The notes: generated from the letters alone by a model not told the origin. Counted from the first letter of the stretch, positions 2,897-12,286 are shown. The stretch: DNA of 13,127 nucleotides from an uncultured Eubacteriales bacterium (GCA_964470745.1 CAYYEC010000047.1:1-13127); one strand, 5' to 3'. Numbers and translations: made by a program.

Positions 2897-2926
2897 TTGC
2901 CATATTTCAATTATATATGCTATAAT
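2897..2926 (+). promoter_or_regulatory. Probable sigma-A promoter of the sensor / histidine kinase / response regulator operon
   Basis: TTGCCA (2897-2902), 18-bp spacer, then TGcTATAAT (2918-2926, extended -10). This predicts a 5' leader of about 170 nt before ATG 3105. Confidence 0.4.
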
Positions 2927-3104: not shown

Positions 3105-4106
3105 ATGAAAAAAATCTACATTATTTTTGCTATAGCTATAATTTTAATAACGGTATTTGTTTTCATGGATTTTAAATTTGAAGAAGAAAATACAGATTTT
3201 TCAACATCATGTAATGATTCAGCTAAAAAAATTATTATGGGCTTTTCTCAAATTGGCTCTGAAAGTGAATGGCGAACAGCAAGCTCGAGATCGATTACTG
3301 AAGCAGCACAGGATGCTGATATAGAATTAAAATTTATGGATGCCCAGCAAAGACAGGAAAATCAGATTAAGGCCATTAGAGGGTTTATTGCACAGAGGGT
3401 TGATATAATTGCATTTACACCAATAATTCAGACTGGATGGGATTCTGTTTTAAGAGAAGCAAGAGATGCTGACATTCCTGTTATATTAGTTGATAGAACA
3501 ATTGATACTGAAGATTCTTCTTTATATGATGCATACATAGGGTCAGATTTTCTTGGAGAGGGAAAAAAGGCAGGCAAGTGGTTGGAAGATAGATTAAGTG
3601 GAATTGACAAGGAGATTAATATTTTTGAGATTGAAGGTACTATAGGTTCTGCTCCGGCTATAGAAAGAAAAGAAGGATTTTACAGTATTATAAAGGATCA
3701 TAAGAACATGAAAATAATTAAGTCAATAGCTGCAGATTTTATGCGTTCAAAAGGAAAAGAAGTGATGGAGGATTATCTAGAATCTCAAGGTTTAGGAATT
3801 GATGTTATCTATTCCCATAATGATGATATGGCATTAGGAGCAATTGAGGCATTAGAAGAAGCTGGTTTGAGGCCGGGAAAAGATATAGTGATAATATCAG
3901 TAGATGCAGTAAGAGGAGCTTTTGAGGCAATGATTGAAGGAAAATTAAATTGTTCAGTAGAATGTAATCCATTATTGGGTCCACAATTAATGAAATTAGC
4001 AAAAAATATTGTTATGGGTAAGGATGTTCCCAAAAAAACTATTGTGAATGAAGCTATATTTACTCAAGAAAATGCTAAGAGTGAGCTACCAAATAGAAAA
4101 TATTAA
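3105..4106 (+). CDS. Membrane-anchored periplasmic-binding-protein-fold sugar sensor (YtfQ-like type I sugar-binding protein), the first component of a three-component system
   Basis: SD AGGAGG is at 3094-3099. The N-terminus MKKIYIIFAIAIILITVFVFMDFKFEEE is a single TM anchor with no lipobox and an acidic stretch after the helix. The body carries GFSQIGSESEWR, QENQIKAIRGFIAQRVDIIAF, IPVILVDR, GTIGSAPAIERKEGF, HNDDMALGAIEAL and PGKDIVIISVD. These match the E. coli YtfQ pattern (GFSQVGSESGWR...QENQIKAVRSFVAQGVDAI...ELQGTVGASVAIDRKKGF...YAHNDDMVIGAIQAIKEAGLKPGKDI) and the binding protein at 7563-8588. Confidence 0.8.
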   Translation: MKKIYIIFAIAIILITVFVFMDFKFEEENTDFSTSCNDSAKKIIMGFSQIGSESEWRTASSRSITEAAQDADIELKFMDAQQRQENQIKAIRGFIAQRVDIIAFTPIIQTGWDSVLREARDADIPVILVDRTIDTEDSSLYDAYIGSDFLGEGKKAGKWLEDRLSGIDKEINIFEIEGTIGSAPAIERKEGFYSIIKDHKNMKIIKSIAADFMRSKGKEVMEDYLESQGLGIDVIYSHNDDMALGAIEALEEAGLRPGKDIVIISVDAVRGAFEAMIEGKLNCSVECNPLLGPQLMKLAKNIVMGKDVPKKTIVNEAIFTQENAKSELPNRKY

Positions 4107-4128
4107 TTGAAAATAAATGGAGGAAAAA

Positions 4129-5613
4129 ATGGTGAATAGTTTTTTTCCTGAATTAATTCATAAATATAGTATAAATAAAAATAAAATCAGTTCAAATATT
4201 AAGCTTTCAATTAGAAGTAAAATCCTTATATCTTTTGTTATTATAATATTAGTAATGATTAGTCTAAATTTGATGCTTTTACTTAGCTCATTAAAATATA
4301 ATAAACAATATAAAACTATAGTGAATAATATAACAACTATAAACAGGATAAATGGCATTTTAAAAACTAGAATTGATTTGGAAATGTGGAATATAGTTGC
4401 AGGGAAAACTGAGTTTAAAGATGGAAATCAATATGAAATAATAAATGACGCAAAACAAAGTATCAGAGAAATTATGGATAATGTAAGACTAGAAGAAAAT
4501 AGAATAAGATTAGATGTTACATTAAGGACTATAGATACACTTACAAACTATGTTGATATAATGGGAAAGCAGATTGAAAATAAAAGTAAAGTTGCAGAAA
4601 ATGAAAAAATTCTAGATGAAATAAGATCTGTTTCTTCTTTAATCGAAGATAATATCCAGGAATTCATATTGAATGAAATAACTTCAAGTGAAAAAGTAAG
4701 TGAAGACTTAGAGAGAAATACAAGCAGATGGCTTCTAACAAATCTTATTGTTATAGGAGTTACATTGCTTTTTTCAATGCTAATGGCTTGGATTATCTCA
4801 GGAAGTATTACCAAGCCTATAAGGGAACTACATAAAACTACTGCTTTGATAGCAAAGGGTAATTTTGATGTAAGGGTTGAACAGAATAGTGTTGATGAAA
4901 TTGCAGGTTTGAGTAGAAGCTTTAATACAATGATTGTTAAAATAAAAGAGCTTATTGAGAGGAATAAAAAGGAACAGGAAAATTTAAAGAAATCAGAGCT
5001 TAAAGTAATGCAGGCTCAAATAAATCCCCATTTTCTATATAATACTCTAGATACAATTGTATGGATGGCAGAAGCAAATAATATGAAGCAGGTCATAGAA
5101 ATAGTAAGAGCATTATCCAATTTTTTTAGGATTACATTGAGTCGTGGGAAAGATTGGATAAGTGTTCAGGATGAAGTAGAGCATGCGAAGAGCTATTTGA
5201 TAATACAAAAAATCAGGTATAGGGATATTTTAAATTTCAGCTTCGATATAGGTGAAGAAATGTTTAGCCATGCAATTTTAAAGTTGACATTACAGCCAAT
5301 AATAGAAAACGCTTTATATCATGGTATAAAAAACAAGAGATCAGGTGGGATACTACAGGTTAAGGGATATAAAGATGAAGACAGGTTGATATTTGAAGTC
5401 ATGGATGATGGTATGGGTATGACAAAAGAACGGCTTAGCGAAATCCAAACAGAACTTAATGTGGATTCTATTGAGCCAGTTCAAAAAGAAAGTGGATTTG
5501 GCCTAAATAATGTACATAGCAGAATAAAACTTTACTACGGTAAACAATATGGAATATCTATAGAAAGTAAGTATAAAGAAGGAACAAAAGTAACAATTTG
5601 TATACCTGCGTGA
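4129..5613 (+). CDS. Sensor histidine kinase, YesM/LytS (COG2972) type: TM1, ~150-aa extracytoplasmic domain, TM2, HAMP, His_kinase (PF06580), HATPase_c
   Basis: The ORF opens at ATG 4117, but GGAGG (4119-4123) favours ATG 4129 or GTG 4132. The domains visible in sequence are:
- TM1: ILISFVIIILVMISLNLMLLLSSL.
- TM2: WLLTNLIVIGVTLLFSMLMAWIISG.
- HAMP: SITKPIRELHKTTALIAKGNFDVRVEQNSVDEIAGLSRSFNTMIVKIKELI.
- His_kinase H-box: QAQINPHFLYNTLDTIVWMA.
- ATPase N-box IIENALYHGIKN and G-box GFGLNNVHSRIKLYYG.
Only 10 nt separate it from the sensor gene. Confidence 0.85.
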   Translation: MVNSFFPELIHKYSINKNKISSNIKLSIRSKILISFVIIILVMISLNLMLLLSSLKYNKQYKTIVNNITTINRINGILKTRIDLEMWNIVAGKTEFKDGNQYEIINDAKQSIREIMDNVRLEENRIRLDVTLRTIDTLTNYVDIMGKQIENKSKVAENEKILDEIRSVSSLIEDNIQEFILNEITSSEKVSEDLERNTSRWLLTNLIVIGVTLLFSMLMAWIISGSITKPIRELHKTTALIAKGNFDVRVEQNSVDEIAGLSRSFNTMIVKIKELIERNKKEQENLKKSELKVMQAQINPHFLYNTLDTIVWMAEANNMKQVIEIVRALSNFFRITLSRGKDWISVQDEVEHAKSYLIIQKIRYRDILNFSFDIGEEMFSHAILKLTLQPIIENALYHGIKNKRSGGILQVKGYKDEDRLIFEVMDDGMGMTKERLSEIQTELNVDSIEPVQKESGFGLNNVHSRIKLYYGKQYGISIESKYKEGTKVTICIPA

Positions 5614-5656
5614 GAATCTTTAATTTGTGCTATAGATAAGATAAAGGGTGAATGAG

Positions 5657-7249
5657 ATGTACAAAATTTTTATAGTTGAAGATGAGATAGTAGTAAGGGA
5701 AGGCATAAGAGATAATATTGACTGGGAAAGCACTGATTTTATTATGGCGGGGGAAGCTCCTGATGGTGAAATGGCTTTACCTTTAATCCAGGAAATTAAG
5801 CCGGATATTCTCATAACTGATATAAAGATGCCTTTTATGGATGGTTTAGAATTGTGTCGTATTGTTAGAAAGAGCATGCCGTGGATAAAAATAGTGATAA
5901 TAAGTGGACATGATGAATTTAATTATGCTAAGGAAGCTATAAGTATAGGGGTTACAGAATATATGTTAAAGCCTGTAAGCTCCGTAGAATTGCTTAAACA
6001 GCTAAATAAAGTAGCTATAAAAATTGAAAATGAAAAAGAAGAAAAAGCAAATATAGAAAAAATAAAAAATCAGTTAAATAGTAACCGGGAATCAATAAAA
6101 GAAAAATTTCTAAATGAAGTATCCCTGGGTATAATTACCACTAAAGAAGCTCTGGAAAAGGCATCTTACTTTAATATAGATTTAGTTTCAAGATATTATC
6201 TTGTTGAAATAATTGAAATAGAAAAAAGTGAAAATATCAAATATTTTAATCAAGAAGAGTTATTAGAAATTGATATTATTATTTCTAATTATATTGAAAA
6301 AAATCCTGAAATAATCAGGTTTAAAAGAAACTTAGAAGAGTTTGTATTAATTATAAAGGGAGAATCTGAAAAAGATCTTGAGGAGATTTCTTATAGGACT
6401 GCCCAGTCTATAAAATATGAAGTTGAAAGAACTACAGAATGCATTCTTTCCATAGGGATTGGAAGTGTTCAAGAAAGAGTTCATGGAATAGCATATTCAT
6501 TTAAAGATGCGTCTACTGCTAACAGACAGAAAATATTGCTGGGAAAAGGGAAAATAATTGATATAAATGATATAAAGATAGATAAGGAAGAAAGTAGACT
6601 GCTTGATATAAGTAAAATAAGTATTACTGATTTTCTAAAAGTAGGCTCTAAGCAAAGTATCAATGGTTTTTTAGATGAATATATAAAATGCCTAAATACT
6701 ACTGGCCTAAAATCAATAATGTATATACATTATGCTTTTTTAAACATTGTATTAAATACTGTTAAATTTATTGAAAACCTGGAAGGTGATAATAAAAAAG
6801 TAATAGAAGAAATATCAAATTCAGAAAACACTTTATTGGGAATCGTTTCTATAAATCAATTCAAAGAGCAGGCTTTTAATATTTTATCGAAGGCTTTTGA
6901 CTATCGAGACAACATTGTGGAAAGTAAATATTTAAATGTAATTGCAATGGCAAAAAAATATATAAATGAAAACTATTCAGATTCTTCAATGTCATTAAAT
7001 TCTGTTGCAGCCTTTGTAAATATCAGTCCAAGTCATTTTAGTACCATATTCAGCCAGGAAACTGGAGAAACATTTATTGAATATTTGACGAAGACAAGAA
7101 TAAATAAAGCTATGGAATTATTAAAGACAACATCTCAAAAAACTTTTGAAATATCTTATGCTGTTGGATATAATGATCCTCATTATTTTAGTCATCTTTT
7201 TAAAAAAGTGACTGGAAGAACTCCAAGAGAGTTTAGGATAAATGAATAA
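5657..7249 (+). CDS. Response regulator, YesN (COG4753) type: CheY receiver plus AraC/XylS helix-turn-helix
   Basis: The ORF opens at GTG 5648. ATG 5657 sits 6-7 nt after AGGGTGA and gives the classic N-terminus MYKIFIVEDE. The receiver Asp is in PDILITDIKMPFMDG. The C-terminal AraC HTH reads MSLNSVAAFVNISPSHFSTIFSQETGETFIEYLTKTRINKAMELL...ISYAVGYNDPHYFSHLFKKVTGRTPREFR. Confidence 0.85.
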   Translation: MYKIFIVEDEIVVREGIRDNIDWESTDFIMAGEAPDGEMALPLIQEIKPDILITDIKMPFMDGLELCRIVRKSMPWIKIVIISGHDEFNYAKEAISIGVTEYMLKPVSSVELLKQLNKVAIKIENEKEEKANIEKIKNQLNSNRESIKEKFLNEVSLGIITTKEALEKASYFNIDLVSRYYLVEIIEIEKSENIKYFNQEELLEIDIIISNYIEKNPEIIRFKRNLEEFVLIIKGESEKDLEEISYRTAQSIKYEVERTTECILSIGIGSVQERVHGIAYSFKDASTANRQKILLGKGKIIDINDIKIDKEESRLLDISKISITDFLKVGSKQSINGFLDEYIKCLNTTGLKSIMYIHYAFLNIVLNTVKFIENLEGDNKKVIEEISNSENTLLGIVSINQFKEQAFNILSKAFDYRDNIVESKYLNVIAMAKKYINENYSDSSMSLNSVAAFVNISPSHFSTIFSQETGETFIEYLTKTRINKAMELLKTTSQKTFEISYAVGYNDPHYFSHLFKKVTGRTPREFRINE

Positions 7250-7562
7250 CTTATAAATTTTAATTTATTGATTATTATATATGAATGTTATTTTTCTTTG
7301 CTCAACATACAAAAAATCAAAAGAAAAAACAGCTAAATCAAAAAAAAATTAACTTAATTTTAAAAAAAACTAGAAGATTTAAAATCAAAAAAAATTTTTA
7401 AACTATTTTAAAATCTATATTCATTGTTTGAAAACTATATAAATTTTATAATTTATTTATCAGATGTAGAGATTGGGCAAGTAGGTTTACTGGATATTAT
7501 TAGCCTCGCTTACTTTTATCTATAAATGATTAATAAAAAATTTTTATTAGGAGGAAAAAATA
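7250..7562 (+). promoter_or_regulatory. 313-bp extremely AT-rich regulatory region upstream of the ABC transporter operon, with repeated TTAAAATC / AAATCA(8-9) motifs that are candidate response-regulator binding sites
   Basis: AAATCAAAAAAAA occurs at 7335-7347 and 7382-7394. TTTAAAATC occurs at 7378-7386 and 7407-7415. There are many A-tracts. A weak promoter candidate is TTGTTT (7424-7429), 17-bp spacer, TATAAT (7447-7452). The SD AGGAGG (7547-7552) lies 10 nt before ATG 7563. Confidence 0.4.
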
Positions 7563-8588
7563 ATGGGAATGAAAAAAATTATCAAAGCAGTTTCATTGAT
7601 GATGGTGTCAGCAATGATGGTGTCAATGGTAGCTTGCACTGGGGCAAGTAAAACAGCTCCAGCGACTTCTTCGGAAACAAAGGCTGAAACTAAAGCAGAC
7701 AAAAAAATAGTATTAGGATTTTCACAAATTGGGGCAGAAAGTGAATGGAGAACAGCTAATACTGAATCAATTAAGCAAGCAGCTGCTGATGCAGGTATAG
7801 AATTAAAATTTGCTGATGCACAAAATAAACAGGAAAACCAGATTAAAGCAATTAGATCATTTATTGCACAAAAAGTTGATGTTATAGCATTTTCACCGGT
7901 TGTTGAAACTGGCTTTGAAACAGTTCTAAAAGAAGCTAAAGCGGCTGGAATACCAGTTATACTTACAGATAGAGCAGTTGATGTAGATGATGATTCTTTA
8001 TATGTAACATTTATGGGATCTGACTTCGAAATAGAAGGAGAAAGAGCTGCTAACTGGCTAATAGAATATATGGATAAAAAAGGTAAAACAGGTGATATAA
8101 ACATAGTTGAACTTCAAGGTACTGTAGGTTCAGCTCCAGCAATTGACCGTAAAGACGGATTTGAAAAGATCCTTAAAGATCATCCAAATTATAAGATAAT
8201 CAAATCACAAACTGGTGACTTTACTCGTGCATTAGGTAAAGAAGTTATGGAAGCTTTCTTAAAATCAGATGGAGATAAAATTGACGTATTATTTGCACAC
8301 AATGATGATATGGCAATTGGCGCAATACAAGCAATCGAAGAATATGGTAAAAAACCAGGTGAAGATATTACAATCGTATCAATCGATGGTGTTAAAGGTG
8401 CGTTTGAAGCTATGATAGCTGGTAAATTAAATTGTACAGTAGAATGTAGTCCTCTTCTTGGACCACAATTGATGCAATCGGTTAAAGATTTAATGGCAGG
8501 TAATGAACTACCTAAGAGAATAGTAACTGAAGAAGGCGTATTTCCGGCAGAAGTTGCTGCTGAAGAATTCCCAAATAGAAAATATTAA
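7563..8588 (+). CDS. ABC transporter sugar-binding lipoprotein, YtfQ-like (galactofuranose/furanose-type); paralogue of the sensor at 3105-4106
   Basis: Signal peptide MGMKKIIKAVSLMMVSAMMVSMVAC with a lipobox (MVA|C), followed by a Ser/Thr/Lys-rich linker. The mature protein aligns colinearly with the sensor: GFSQIGAESEWRTA, QENQIKAIRSFIAQKVDVIAF, IPVILTDR, GTVGSAPAIDRKDGF, HNDDMAIGAIQAIEE and PGEDITIVSIDGVKGAFEAMIAGKLNCTVECSPLLGPQLM. Both end with PNRKY. Confidence 0.85.
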   Translation: MGMKKIIKAVSLMMVSAMMVSMVACTGASKTAPATSSETKAETKADKKIVLGFSQIGAESEWRTANTESIKQAAADAGIELKFADAQNKQENQIKAIRSFIAQKVDVIAFSPVVETGFETVLKEAKAAGIPVILTDRAVDVDDDSLYVTFMGSDFEIEGERAANWLIEYMDKKGKTGDINIVELQGTVGSAPAIDRKDGFEKILKDHPNYKIIKSQTGDFTRALGKEVMEAFLKSDGDKIDVLFAHNDDMAIGAIQAIEEYGKKPGEDITIVSIDGVKGAFEAMIAGKLNCTVECSPLLGPQLMQSVKDLMAGNELPKRIVTEEGVFPAEVAAEEFPNRKY

Positions 8589-8615
8589 GATTTAGTTAAA
8601 ACAAGAATTTGTGAT

Positions 8616-8695
8616 AAAACCACTCCTATCCTATTGTACCTTGGGAAAAACAAGGATGATTAATTCATTTCTTGTAAGGAGTGGTTTTGTTTTTA
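8616..8695 (+). terminator. Intra-operon stem-loop plus U-tract between the binding-protein and ATPase genes; candidate attenuating terminator
   Basis: AAAACCACTCCT (8616-8627) pairs with AGGAGTGGTTTT (8677-8688) in a 12-bp stem. The loop contains an inner hairpin, CCTTG (8639-8643) with CAAGG (8651-8655). GTTTTT follows at 8689-8694. Confidence 0.45.
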
Positions 8696-8743
8696 AAAAT
8701 TATTATTTAAAATGGTGAGAAAATTAAGGAGGTGCATTTTAGA

Positions 8744-10255
8744 ATGTCAAGCAATCCAATTTTAAATATGGTAGGGATATACAAAGAGTTTCCAGGCGTA
8801 AAAGCACTTTCTAATGTGGATTTTAAATTAGGAACAGGTGAGATCCATGCACTTATGGGGGAAAATGGAGCAGGAAAGTCAACATTAATTAAATCACTTA
8901 CAGGTGTTTATAAAATAGAAAAAGGCGAAATTTTTCTAAATGGAAAAAAGGTTGAGATAGATTCGCCACATGAAGCTCAAATGTTAGGTATAAGTACAGT
9001 TTACCAGGAGGTAAACTTATGTCCGAATTTAACTGTAGCTGAAAACATTTTTATTGGTAGAGAGCCAATTAAGAGTTTTAAAATTGATTGGGATGAAATT
9101 AATAAAAGAGCAAAAACTATCCTTTCAAGACTGGATATTAATATAGATGTTACAATGACACTTGACAGCTATTCTATTGCTATACAGCAAATGGTTGCAA
9201 TTGCCAGGGCTCTTGAGATATCTGCAAAGGTGTTGATCTTGGATGAGCCTACTTCAAGCCTTGATACCAATGAGGTAAACAAGCTTTTTGAAGTTATGAG
9301 GAAATTAAGAGAAGATGGGTTGGGTATTATTTTTGTAACGCATTTTCTTGATCAGGTATACGAAGTGTGTGACAGAATAACTGTTCTGAGAAATGGTCAA
9401 CTGGTAGGAGAATATGAAATTGAATTTCTGCCAAGAATTGAATTAATATCTAAAATGATAGGAAAAGAATTTGATTCTTTTGAATCTATGAAGAAATCTG
9501 TAAGTACTATGGAAAAAGAGAATTCTGAAAACAGTTTTATAAGATTAAAAGGGCTGGGACAGAAGTCAACTATCAGTTCAGTAGATTTAAATATTAATAA
9601 AGGTGAAGTAATAGGTTTAGCAGGGTTATTAGGTTCTGGAAGAAGTGAAATTGCAAGGTTGATATTTGGAGTTGATAAGGCTGATTCCGGTGAAATCTAC
9701 ATAGAAGGTAAAAAGGTAACTATTACATCACCGGGAGAAGCTATGACTCATCAAATGGCTTTTTGTCCTGAAGATAGAAAAGTAGAAGGTATTATAGGAG
9801 ACTTAACCATAAGAGAAAATATTATTTTGGCTATACAATCCCAAAAAGGATGGTTTAGATATATTGGTAGAAAGGAACAGGAAGAGATAGCAAACAAGTA
9901 TATTAAGCTTCTAAATATAGTTACACCAAGTTGTGAACAGAAAATAGAGAACTTAAGCGGAGGTAATCAACAAAAGGTTATTCTTGCCAGATGGTTGGTG
10001 ACTGAACCAGAATTATTAATACTTGATGAACCAACCAGAGGTATAGATGTTGGTGCAAAGGCCGAAATTCAGAAGTTGGTACTTGAATTAGCTGAGGAAG
10101 GCATGTCTATAATGTTTATTTCCTCTGAGCTGGAAGAAACAGTAAGATGTTGCAACAGAGTAGTTGTGTTATGTGATAGAAAAATTGTTGGAGAACTTTC
10201 TTCAGAAGAAATAAGTGAAAATAAAATTATGCAAATTATCGCAAAGGAGGCATAG
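8744..10255 (+). CDS. Sugar ABC transporter ATP-binding protein with two tandem ABC domains (YtfR/RbsA/MglA-like)
   Basis: The ORF opens at GTG 8732, which lies inside the SD AAGGAGG (8726-8732). ATG 8744 (MSSNPILNMVGIYKEF) is the likely start. N-domain: Walker A GENGAGKST, signature LSGGNQQ-like motif, Walker B VLILDEPTSSLD. C-domain: GLLGSGRSE, LSGGNQQKVILARWL, LLILDEPTRGIDVGAK. Length is ~500 aa. Confidence 0.85.
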   Translation: MSSNPILNMVGIYKEFPGVKALSNVDFKLGTGEIHALMGENGAGKSTLIKSLTGVYKIEKGEIFLNGKKVEIDSPHEAQMLGISTVYQEVNLCPNLTVAENIFIGREPIKSFKIDWDEINKRAKTILSRLDINIDVTMTLDSYSIAIQQMVAIARALEISAKVLILDEPTSSLDTNEVNKLFEVMRKLREDGLGIIFVTHFLDQVYEVCDRITVLRNGQLVGEYEIEFLPRIELISKMIGKEFDSFESMKKSVSTMEKENSENSFIRLKGLGQKSTISSVDLNINKGEVIGLAGLLGSGRSEIARLIFGVDKADSGEIYIEGKKVTITSPGEAMTHQMAFCPEDRKVEGIIGDLTIRENIILAIQSQKGWFRYIGRKEQEEIANKYIKLLNIVTPSCEQKIENLSGGNQQKVILARWLVTEPELLILDEPTRGIDVGAKAEIQKLVLELAEEGMSIMFISSELEETVRCCNRVVVLCDRKIVGELSSEEISENKIMQIIAKEA

Positions 10256-10257
10256 GG

Positions 10258-11337
10258 ATGAAAAACTTATTAAATATGCTGAAGCGCTTTTCAAAATGGA
10301 GATTATTTGGTCCATTTATTACATTGGCTTTGGTTCTTATGTTTAATGTGATATTTACACCTGGGTTCTTTCATTTGGAGATCAAAGATGGGCATTTGTT
10401 TGGAAGTCTAATAGATATACTAAACCGTGGTTCGAGTACCATGATTATGGCTGTAGGATTAACATTTGTAGTGGCTACGGGAGGTATTGATATTTCAATA
10501 GGATCCATGATAGCTATAACAGGTGCTGTAGCAGCGACATTAATTGGTGGAGAACTGGTAATTGTTGATGGCGTTCAAGAGTATGTATCATTACTACCTA
10601 TGCCTATTGCTATATTAGCAGCTCTGGCTGTTGCTATTGCTCTTGGAATGTGGAATGGAACTCTTGTTGCCAGGATAGGAATTCAGCCTGTAGTCGCTAC
10701 ATTAATATTACTTACTGCCGGTAGAGGTATCGCACAATTATTAACTAAAGGACAAATAATTACTATATATTATAAACCATATCATTTTATTGGTACAGAA
10801 TACTTACTCGGATTACCATTCTCAATTTATATAGTAGTATTTATATTAATTCTCTCATTATTGACTGTTAAGAAGACAGCTCTTGGATTGTTTATTGAGT
10901 CAGCAGGATGTAATCCTGTTGCCAGCAAATTTGCAGGAATAAAAGTTAAGAAGATAATTTTTTGGTCATATGTTTTTTGTAGTTTTTGTGCAGGTATAGC
11001 TGGATTAATTATTAGCTCAAATGTTAAGAGTGCAGATGGGAACAATGCAGGTCTGTTTAAAGAAATGGATGTTATTCTAGCAGTAGCACTTGGAGGTAAT
11101 TCTCTAAATGGAGGAAGATTCTCTTTAGTGGGAAGTGTTATTGGAGCATTGATTGTTCAATCCATTGATACAACAATATATTCAGTAGGTATTCCTCCAC
11201 AAATAAGTAAAATTATTAAAGCTGTTGCTGTAATTATAATATGTTTGGCACAGTCTCAACCGTTTAATGATAAAATGTCAAAAGTTTTTAAAAAAAGAGG
11301 GGGTCTAAAATATGAAGAAAATGCAGTTAAATTATAA
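10258..11337 (+). CDS. Sugar ABC transporter permease, RbsC/YtfT-like (BPD_transp_2)
   Basis: ATG 10258 is 9 nt after AGGAGG and 2 nt after the ATPase stop. Multiple TM segments. The family motif TGGIDISIGSMIA is present. Confidence 0.85.
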   Translation: MKNLLNMLKRFSKWRLFGPFITLALVLMFNVIFTPGFFHLEIKDGHLFGSLIDILNRGSSTMIMAVGLTFVVATGGIDISIGSMIAITGAVAATLIGGELVIVDGVQEYVSLLPMPIAILAALAVAIALGMWNGTLVARIGIQPVVATLILLTAGRGIAQLLTKGQIITIYYKPYHFIGTEYLLGLPFSIYIVVFILILSLLTVKKTALGLFIESAGCNPVASKFAGIKVKKIIFWSYVFCSFCAGIAGLIISSNVKSADGNNAGLFKEMDVILAVALGGNSLNGGRFSLVGSVIGALIVQSIDTTIYSVGIPPQISKIIKAVAVIIICLAQSQPFNDKMSKVFKKRGGLKYEENAVKL

Positions 11338-12286
11338 GTATTTACCTCTGACGATAACAATTTTATTATTTGTTGTATTGTTTATGGCAGGTTCCTTAAA
11401 ATATACAGGTTTTTTCTCATTACAAGTTATAATGAATTTATTTATTGATAATGCTTTCCTTATAATAGCAGCTATAGGTATGACATTTGTTCTTTTAACA
11501 GGAGGAATCGATATTTCGGTTGGATCTGTAATTGCTTTAAGCTGTATGATAGCAGCCGATTTACTTGAAAATAAGCATATGAACCCGTATCTTGTTATGT
11601 TGATTGTATTACTTGTAGGTACAACAATTGGGTTTATTATGGGATATCTTATTCACTACTTTAAATTGCAGCCATTTATTGTTACTCTGGCTGGACTGTT
11701 CTTTGCACGTGGATTATGCTATATAATCAGTATAGGAAGTATAAGCATAAATGACCCTATATTTAAGAATATATCCCAGTTTAGAATACCATTGCCGGGA
11801 AACGCATTTGTATCAATTAGTGTTATTATTACGATAGCTATGATTATACTTGCAGTTTATTTAGCTCATTATACAAAATTCGGAAGAACAGTCTATGCAA
11901 TAGGTGGTAACGAGCAGTCAGCACTTCTTATGGGATTACCTGTTGCAAAAGTTAAAGTTTTGGTATATACCCTGAATGGTTTTTGTGCAGCATTATCAGG
12001 TCTCGTATTTTCCTTTTACATGCTTTCAGGCTATGGACTAACAGGTGTAGGTATGGAAATGGACGTAATTGCATCAGCAGTTATAGGTGGTACATTATTG
12101 ACAGGTGGAGTAGGATTTGTTATAGGTTCTGTATTTGGAGCATTAATACAAGGTATTATCCAAACAATAATTACCTTTCAGGGAACATTAAGCCCTTGGT
12201 GGACAAGGATAATTGTAGCATTGCTAATATGTGTATTTCTTTTATTGCAGAGAATGCTGCAATCTTTTAAGGTAAAAAAAGCATAG
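11312..12286 (+). CDS. Second sugar ABC transporter permease, YjfF-like (BPD_transp_2)
   Basis: ATG 11312 is 7 nt after AGAGGGGG, which is encoded by the KKRGG codons of the upstream gene. It overlaps the previous gene by 26 nt. The motif TGGIDISVGSVIA is present, with 8-9 predicted TM segments. Confidence 0.85.
   Translation: MKKMQLNYKYLPLTITILLFVVLFMAGSLKYTGFFSLQVIMNLFIDNAFLIIAAIGMTFVLLTGGIDISVGSVIALSCMIAADLLENKHMNPYLVMLIVLLVGTTIGFIMGYLIHYFKLQPFIVTLAGLFFARGLCYIISIGSISINDPIFKNISQFRIPLPGNAFVSISVIITIAMIILAVYLAHYTKFGRTVYAIGGNEQSALLMGLPVAKVKVLVYTLNGFCAALSGLVFSFYMLSGYGLTGVGMEMDVIASAVIGGTLLTGGVGFVIGSVFGALIQGIIQTIITFQGTLSPWWTRIIVALLICVFLLLQRMLQSFKVKKA

Follow-up and report, generated by a model that had tools for sequence, protein, structure and literature searches.

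A kinase-linked binding protein of the YtfQ/GafA family and its transport paralogue in an uncultured Eubacteriales bacterium: a probable furanose sensor beside a furanose importer

A 13,127-nucleotide stretch of DNA from an uncultured Eubacteriales bacterium (GCA_964470745.1, CAYYEC010000047.1:1-13127; hereafter the window) carries a sugar cluster of seven co-oriented genes, all on the + strand, in which two related periplasmic-type binding proteins occur: one directly upstream of a membrane histidine kinase, the other at the head of an ABC importer operon. We consider it probable that the cluster comprises two modules, a three-component furanose sensor (3105-7249) and an importer of the GafABCD/YtfQRT-YjfF type with a lipoprotein of its own (7563-12286), and that the sensor regulates the importer. 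Free furanose, likeliest L-arabinofuranose from arabinan or arabinoxylan and possibly also D-galactofuranose, would close the sensor binding protein; the loaded protein would then alter the extracytoplasmic four-helix bundle of the kinase, its likely docking partner, as in XylFII-LytS. The kinase would phosphorylate a YesN-type response regulator, which would in turn activate a promoter upstream of 7563, while a hairpin after the transport binding-protein gene would keep that protein in excess over the translocator. The data show paralogy, family membership, intact contact residues, the gene architecture together with its retention in 85 loci, and joint inheritance of the sensor copy with the kinase. 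The sensor-kinase contact, the identity of the ligand, the direction of regulation and the operator are the parts of this scheme that we infer.

Two paralogues of the furanose-binding family

BLASTP aligns the sensor copy (3105-4103) with the transport copy (7563-8585) at 177 identities in 295 columns (60%), with 80% positives, a single 2-residue gap and E 4e-137; 118 aligned positions differ. An initial annotation of this DNA had put the identity by eye at roughly 55-60% over about 290 residues, with anything under 30% to be taken as fatal to its case. The computed value lies well above that level, and the coordinates, the matching blocks and the identical C-terminal PNRKY given there are all borne out by the alignment.

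Both proteins belong among furanose-binding relatives. The best curated NCBIfam family is YtfQ for each (346.2 bits for the sensor copy and 366.3 for the transport copy), with RbsB next at about 107 bits, and the xylF model reaches only E 3e-13. Comparison with solved structures pairs the sensor copy with 6hyh, 6hbd and 6hb0 (E 8e-98), 5ocp (6e-83) and 2vk2 (8e-81), and the transport copy with solved GafAs at E values from 8e-105 (6hb0) to 2e-83. Of these structures, 6HB0, 6HBD, 6HBM and 6HYH are from M. smegmatis, 5OCP is Shewanella GafA and 2VK2 is E. coli YtfQ. These matches support the assignment of both copies as paralogues within the YtfQ/GafA family.

Their N-termini, assigned by rule from lipobox patterns and hydropathy, differ in kind, much as first described: an uncleaved hydrophobic anchor with no lipobox on the sensor copy, and a lipobox with a linker on the transport copy. 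The start of the sensor gene is secure, because it is the first start codon of the open reading frame (ORF) and lies 7 nt after AAGGAGG. Residues 4-21 (IYIIFAIAIILITVFVFM) are strongly hydrophobic, with a best 15-residue Kyte-Doolittle mean of 3.37, and acidic residues come next. The sole Cys of this copy, C36, sits 15 residues past the hydrophobic stretch and behind D/E, and fails both the strict and the relaxed lipobox pattern. In the transport copy, ...MMVSMVA-C fits the strict pattern, and a linker rich in Ser, Thr and Lys comes after it.

The upstream copy is inherited with the kinase

The sensor copy has no close orthologue: in a set of 5.8 billion proteins its best matches are 56-63% identical and are mostly ordinary GafAs. 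A subset of these matches carries DFMRSKG where transport proteins have GDFTRAKG, and every DFMRSKG protein whose context was examined is encoded immediately before an orthologous kinase and regulator, the kinases being 61-63% identical to that of the window, sensor domain included. While a scan of genome contigs with a single kinase sequence returned no relative, a kinase alignment of six sequences, scanned over one genome per species, yielded 80 further loci, which were annotated by BLAST against the window's seven proteins. The related loci come from Clostridia and other Bacillota metagenome-assembled genomes, Pseudobacteroides cellulosolvens, one Calditrichales genome and about 60 Chloroflexota.

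A GafA-like gene stands directly beside the orthologous kinase in 79 of the 85 non-redundant loci, and most of the others are truncated contigs. Two arrangements recur. With S for the kinase-linked binding protein, HK for the histidine kinase, RR for the response regulator and T for the transport binding protein, the Firmicutes-type order is S-HK-RR-T-ATPase-permease-permease, as in the window, and the Chloroflexota order is RR-HK-S-T-ATPase-permease-permease. In three loci (L076, L082 and L086) S-HK-RR is present but the surrounding 4-8 kb hold no Gaf transporter. Because the upstream copy keeps its place beside the kinase across these loci, including those with no transporter nearby, it goes with the kinase rather than with the transporter. 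Gene adjacency thus bears out the proposal that links the upstream copy with the kinase and the downstream one with the transporter.

Sequence divergence tells a similar story. Pairwise distances were compared across 45 loci that have all parts, 36 of them from Chloroflexota. Distances among kinase-linked copies correlate with those among kinase sensor domains at r 0.92 (0.84 within the 36 Chloroflexota loci) and with those among ATPases at r 0.84 (0.53), whereas for the transport copies the corresponding values are 0.57 (0.26) against the sensor domain and 0.77 (0.69) against the ATPase. This shows two separately inherited modules, one of binding protein and kinase and one of binding protein and translocator, and the correlations are in keeping with the upstream copy and the kinase working as a pair.

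The mode of membrane attachment proves a poor guide to function. The initial annotation had read the anchor type as a sign of sensor versus transporter, and among the relatives this reading fails. Of 77 kinase-linked copies, about 74 carry a Cys that fits the strict or the relaxed lipobox pattern, and only those of the window and of L006 (P0120) clearly lack one. Five Christensenellales-type loci (L073, L077, L079, L080 and L083) show the reverse pattern, in which the transport copy bears an AxA type-I signal and the kinase-linked copy a lipobox; the two copies there are 37-39% identical. Since most kinase-linked copies have a lipobox-like Cys, the suggestion that two lipoprotein N-termini would undermine a sensor role is not a valid test. 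The uncleaved anchor of the window's sensor is a minor local variant of tethering.

A further arrangement was seen at L089, where tandem two-domain binding proteins occur whose C-terminal half is GafA-like (8001-9710, P0006; also P0003-P0005). P0006 comes after a PF06580 kinase of dCache type and a regulator of AraC type, and ahead of another binding protein and an ABC transporter; the arrangement resembles the same design with a fused sensor.

The ligand pocket and the likely sugar

Solved YtfQ/GafA proteins use the same binding-site residues whether their ligand is L-arabinofuranose, D-galactofuranose or both; in the GafA pocket Asp111 pairs with Arg38 (E. coli numbering), with a Trp and a Phe stacked against the sugar ring (PMC10191376). 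The W, R and D named there correspond to W56/R57/D130 of the sensor copy and to W62/R63/D136 of the transport copy, and are 100% conserved in every group of relatives. Nine further contact positions were assigned via homology to ribose-binding protein; seven of the nine are invariant in every group. This makes twelve canonical contacts, E, S, W, R, D, R, R, F, N, D, D and E, none of which differs between the copies. All twelve residues are the majority in every group and ten are invariant in every kinase-linked and transport group, with the Ser and Phe contacts falling as low as 0.70 in Chloroflexota transport copies. Because the ligand-contact residues are kept, it is likely that both copies bind the same or a closely related furanose, in line with what had been expected of the pair.

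As to which furanose, neighboring genes in other loci are informative. Both L002 and L012 carry araA, araB, araD, an AraR-like regulator and a dockerin-bearing GH43 enzyme; araB and/or araD are present in six Chloroflexota loci (L017, L027, L031, L040, L065 and L067); and L023 has araD, with only weak araA and AraR matches. This linkage in the relatives agrees with the reported linkage of clade II GafA systems to araBAD (PMC10191376). Judged by protein family and by these other loci, the signal is most likely L-arabinofuranose, with D-galactofuranose possible too.

Kinase, regulator and regulatory DNA

By domain content, the kinase and regulator are of the YesM/YesN or LytS/YesN type. The kinase is ordered as a first transmembrane helix, a predicted extracytoplasmic four-helix bundle of about 145 residues, a second transmembrane helix, HAMP, His_kinase (PF06580) and HATPase, and Pfam assigns to the regulator Response_reg (2.1e-24), GGDEF_2 (1.6e-6), HTH_18 (8.2e-21) and HTH_AraC (6.5e-20). 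Kinase residues 28-232 were modeled with AlphaFold2 on 32 sequences; run against the set of 5.8 billion proteins, a profile of the sensor domain found chiefly short fragments, and that search served this alignment only. The model (predicted local distance difference test score, pLDDT, 87.5) places a four-helix bundle between two membrane helices, with helices at 5-67, 78-95, 99-127 and 132-204 in fragment numbering. Its top Foldseek match among 350,542 PDB chains is 5xsj_L, the LytSN of the XylFII-LytSN complex, with a TM-score of 0.85 normalised on the target and a root-mean-square deviation of 2.2 Å over 121 columns. A phmmer search of PDB sequences with the sensor domain as a single sequence gave no LytS match. 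The model suggests that the sensor domain agrees with LytS in fold and architecture. The XylFII-LytS system reportedly goes back to Sun et al. 2015 and Li et al. 2017 (PDB 5XSJ).

Candidate control elements lie in front of each module. Upstream of the sensor gene is the best-scoring sigma-70-like match in the scan (11/12, with an extended -10), and the sensor module probably has a promoter of its own. Three A-rich repeats (AAATCAAAAAAAA) and a 17-mer, CAAAAAAAAATTAACTT, at 7339-7355 lie in the 313 nt that separate the regulator gene from the transport operon. In its exact form (Y at one position), CAAAAAAAAATYAACTT, the 17-mer has a single occurrence in the window, and of 88 loci only L004/L005 and L011 have it, in the equivalent regulator-to-transporter spacer (L004 14143-14159, L005 8555-8571, L011 11053-11069; three independent loci). 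We infer from this that the A-rich repeats and the 17-mer are a candidate site for the AraC-type response regulator.

The hairpin between the transport binding-protein gene and the ATPase gene has a minimum free energy of -35.6 kcal/mol, against -22.4 +/- 3.3 for shuffled sequences (z -4.0), and was not detected by a simple terminator scan. Internal terminators set the ratio of binding protein to translocator in ABC importers of cellulolytic clostridia (PMC9045158), and by analogy the hairpin is a probable internal, partial terminator. A search of the window against Rfam gave no match.

The importer

The best NCBIfam family of the ATPase is YtfR (720.7 bits, cutoff 850), that of the first permease YtfT (317.6 bits, cutoff 535) and that of the second permease YjfF (441.7 bits, above its cutoff of 363 and the only translocator protein to pass its equivalog cutoff). 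Because YtfR, YtfT and YjfF are the best matches of the ATPase and permeases, the downstream half is read as a GafABCD-type furanose importer. The transport copy of this low-GC host has 76-80% identity to GafAs of Sorangium, Haliea and Burkholderiales, which is unusually high across phyla and suggests either strong constraint or horizontal transfer of the transport module.

Relation to known systems

Pairs of sensor and transport binding proteins have precedent (PMC8050422, PMC10384115, PMC11847368). For instance, C. beijerinckii controls its adjoining xylFGH importer through XylFII-LytS-YesN, in which the kinase is activated by a binding protein reserved for sensing and the regulator then acts as the inducer (PMC8050422). 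The window resembles that system in having a Peripla_BP_4 gene beside a PF06580-type kinase and an AraC-type regulator, an adjacent CUT2-type sugar importer with a paralogous binding protein of its own, and a kinase sensor domain predicted to form a four-helix bundle whose best PDB match is LytSN. The analogy to XylFII-LytS drawn in the initial annotation is therefore borne out by the gene architecture and by the fold predicted for the sensor domain of the kinase. The two systems differ in that the binding proteins of the window are of the YtfQ/GafA (furanose) and not the xylose subfamily, its kinase sensor domain has no sequence-level similarity to LytSN, and its importer has two permease genes of YtfT/YjfF type.

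The likeness to GafABCD/YtfQRT-YjfF lies in intact contact residues, structure matches for both copies and a YtfR/YtfT/YjfF-like translocator. Characterized systems of that type, however, are described as having AraR/AraC-type or no linked regulators, and no paralogous co-sensor has been reported for them (PMC10191376), whereas the window has a second GafA copy attached to a two-component system. A third comparison is offered by CuaDSR/CuaABC of Ruminiclostridium cellulolyticum and AraPST/AraEGH of Geobacillus stearothermophilus, in which a sensing binding protein, a kinase and an AraC-type regulator induce the adjoining importer (PMC10384115; PMC5663094). As in the window, the importer there has a separate transport binding protein, and CuaD is a sensing lipoprotein like most kinase-linked GafA copies; the window sensor differs from CuaD in being tethered by an uncleaved hydrophobic segment and not by lipid. 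The Cua proteins are of SBP_bac_1 type with cellobiose as ligand, and so belong to another protein family. In the literature searched, coverage of which was incomplete, no description of a GafA/YtfQ-type co-sensor was found.

Weighing the alternatives

Several observations count against a furanose sensor that controls the importer. Both binding proteins score under the NCBIfam equivalog cutoff for YtfQ (NF041827, 510 bits), as do two of the three translocator proteins under theirs. The window holds no arabinose-catabolic or arabinofuranosidase gene, so that the ligand assignment rests on the family and on other loci. A mirror-tree correlation mirrors the co-inheritance of adjacent genes and is no proof of contact. 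The structural match between the kinase sensor domain and LytSN comes at 17% identity and a Foldseek E of 1.7e-3, and a 19-sequence profile of the domain, run against the PDB, finds at E <= 10 only designed helical proteins and no LytSN; with such an E value, and four-helix bundles being common, homology of the two domains is not established. Finally, the promoter and the operator were identified by match to a consensus or by conservation, in DNA that is very rich in A and T.

The kinase-linked copy might also serve in a dual role, both signaling and feeding the transporter in the manner of ChvE/VirA or CBP/ChiS, with the second copy adding capacity. Four or five Chloroflexota loci lend this some substance: in L068 (10528-11700), L069 (1451-2476), L071 (3927-5099) and L074 (10540-11385), and perhaps in L033, a single GafA-like gene lies between the kinase and the ATPase. 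These single copies group with the kinase-linked clade, so one protein can apparently serve both modules, for sensing and transport alike. In the window, however, a separate and highly conserved transport-type copy, 76-80% identical over 285 aligned columns to GafAs of Proteobacteria, Myxococcota and other Clostridia, heads the transporter operon. The two copies have also fared differently at the 111 positions invariant in three solved GafAs: the transport copy keeps 100 and has lost 11, whereas the sensor copy keeps 84 and has lost 27, which makes it the faster-diverging of the two. A dual role in the window is, in our judgment, unlikely.

Docking of the sensor copy on the permeases would be compatible with the data, and it keeps every ligand-contact residue at 60% identity to the transport copy; it could on these grounds be a second transport receptor for the same translocator, perhaps of other affinity or specificity, next to a kinase by accident. 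Such an accident would have to recur in 79 of 85 loci and in two gene orders, and in the three S-HK-RR loci there is no nearby Gaf transporter for a receptor to serve. The divergence of the sensor copy, furthermore, tracks that of the kinase over that of the ATPase (r 0.92 against 0.84), the more so in Chloroflexota (0.84 against 0.53). We hold a second receptor to be very unlikely, and retain the sensor role for the upstream copy.

Origin of the pair

The initial annotation described a duplication-derived pair. The copies are indeed paralogous, and a duplication lies somewhere in their history, but it was not both recent and local, given that the transport copy is closer to the GafAs of other phyla than to its neighbor; the event is old, or one partner has been replaced. 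The sensor copy, for its part, is 64-65% identical to other kinase-linked copies and 62-64% to foreign GafAs (285 columns), and because of the latter value it shows no special affinity to its neighbor.

A neighbor-joining tree with 200 bootstraps, in which support for the deep nodes is poor, places the sensor copy within a Firmicutes clade of 27 kinase-linked proteins with weak support (0.39; a sub-clade of 12 reaches 0.55), and the transport copy among widely distributed "core" GafAs. Six substitutions of the sensor copy that are common to kinase-linked copies of other Clostridia argue for its clade better than the tree does, and the orthologous neighboring kinase adds more.

Across the related loci the identity of the two copies within a locus runs from 37% to 86%. 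In eleven Chloroflexota loci (L014, L015, L017, L018, L020, L021, L025, L029, L030, L039 and L041) the copies share 67-86% identity and the tree groups them with each other, and the kinase-linked and transport copies of Chloroflexota cluster as one group (bootstrap 0.73), which points to repeated or recent duplication, or to gene conversion, in some Chloroflexota lineages. A single clade of all kinase-linked copies was considered but not adopted, in view of this Chloroflexota grouping and of the poorly supported deep nodes.

Those eleven loci make a recent tandem duplication in the present genome, followed by rapid divergence of the upstream copy, conceivable in principle, but it is hardly credible for a transport copy that shares 76-80% identity with GafAs of distant phyla and 60% with its neighbor, and for a sensor copy that is equidistant in this sense from neighbor and foreign GafAs, has the six substitutions of other kinase-linked copies and sits, if at weak bootstrap, in their clade.

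Differences between the copies

Positions that differ between the copies had been put forward as candidate kinase contacts, a proposal that finds little encouragement here. Only six of the 118 differences are clade-consistent (S61, I107, I133, M213, S215 and S237 in the sensor copy, compared with the core), and these are the six substitutions shared with other Clostridia. Five of the six lie within four residues of a ligand-contact residue, a zone that takes in 20% of positions by chance expectation (binomial p ~0.002, or 0.005 with position 253 included, in a test that is post hoc and built on small numbers). Being adjacent to ligand-contact residues, the clade-consistent differences do not obviously mark a kinase-contact face, and look more like pocket tuning.

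The exchange of Thr for Met at 213, which adjoins the stacking Phe, is the clearest example: 92% of the close clade have Met and 100% of a second Firmicutes clade have Leu, but Chloroflexota retain Thr. In the second shell, the position of Phe40 in the arabinofuranose-specific Shewanella GafA is occupied by Asn in the transport copy, as in the dual-specificity mycobacterial protein, and by a Ser in the sensor copy that is unique to the window. A separate oddity is that sensor residue 253 is Ala and transport residue 261 Tyr, the reverse of the clade consensus (Tyr at 0.83-0.94 in kinase-linked clades, Ala at 0.77-0.89 in transport and core proteins); chance or a small conversion tract could account for it.

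Speculatively, and with more doubt than conviction, one may imagine kinase-linked GafAs in general as retuned receptors that respond to another furanoside, anomer or concentration range than the importer's, and the sensing and transport modules as separately inherited cassettes that have been re-paired, re-duplicated or collapsed into one dual-purpose protein many times across Bacillota and Chloroflexota.

Layout of the window

The features of the sugar cluster are collected in Table 1. Sensor and kinase genes have the same orientation and are separated by a 10-nt gap.

Table 1. Genes and candidate control elements of the sugar cluster, with positions counted from the first nucleotide of the window
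Feature	Position	Strand	Remarks
Promoter-like site (TTGCCA, 18 nt, TG-n-TATAAT)	2897-2926	+	Upstream of sensor-kinase-regulator genes; consensus match
Kinase-linked YtfQ/GafA-family binding protein, 333 aa, proposed co-sensor	3105-4106	+	Pfam Peripla_BP_4 E 1.3e-46
Membrane histidine kinase, 498 aa	4117-5613	+	Pfam HAMP, His_kinase (PF06580), HATPase
Response regulator, 533 aa, YesN type	5648-7249	+	Pfam receiver, GGDEF_2-like linker, AraC-type HTH
A-rich direct repeats, three copies of AAATCAAAAAAAA	7313-7397	+	Candidate operator
Transport YtfQ/GafA-family lipoprotein binding protein, 341 aa	7563-8588	+	Pfam Peripla_BP_4 E 1.3e-51
Long hairpin and U tract	8613-8697	+	Between binding-protein and ATPase genes
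Double-cassette ABC ATPase, YtfR-like	8732-10255	+	NCBIfam YtfR; Pfam ABC_tran twice
ABC permease, YtfT-like	10258-11337	+	NCBIfam YtfT; Pfam BPD_transp_2
ABC permease, YjfF-like	11312-12286	+	26-nt overlap with previous gene; NCBIfam YjfF; Pfam BPD_transp_2

The cluster is flanked by genes for an SPFH protein, a DUF3784 protein and a partial Fe-alcohol dehydrogenase. A DUF1836 gene on the minus strand (273-854) has one in-frame stop after codon 75 and matches its Pfam family at E 2.3e-33 when the pieces are joined; it is either a pseudogene or the product of a sequencing error. At 1084-2318, a small, 97-aa membrane-protein ORF with no Pfam match, unrelated to the sugar system, overlaps the start of the gene for the SPFH/Band 7 protein, which has a lipoprotein-like N-terminus (…VFVGC).

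Implications

The co-sensor principle being already established, the cluster adds no new principle and is a new example of the three-component design for sugar sensing. Its interest lies in extending sensing of the XylFII-LytS type to the furanose-specific YtfQ/GafA family. The module is widespread: Clostridia, Calditrichales and many Chloroflexota together have 85 loci or more, and about 75 natural pairs of sensor and kinase are thereby at hand for co-variation analysis or complex modeling. The set of sensor, regulator and promoter could also serve clostridial engineering as an arabinose-responsive switch. For the organisms themselves, furanose sensing would allow degraders of plant biomass to detect freshly released L-arabinofuranose before it undergoes mutarotation.

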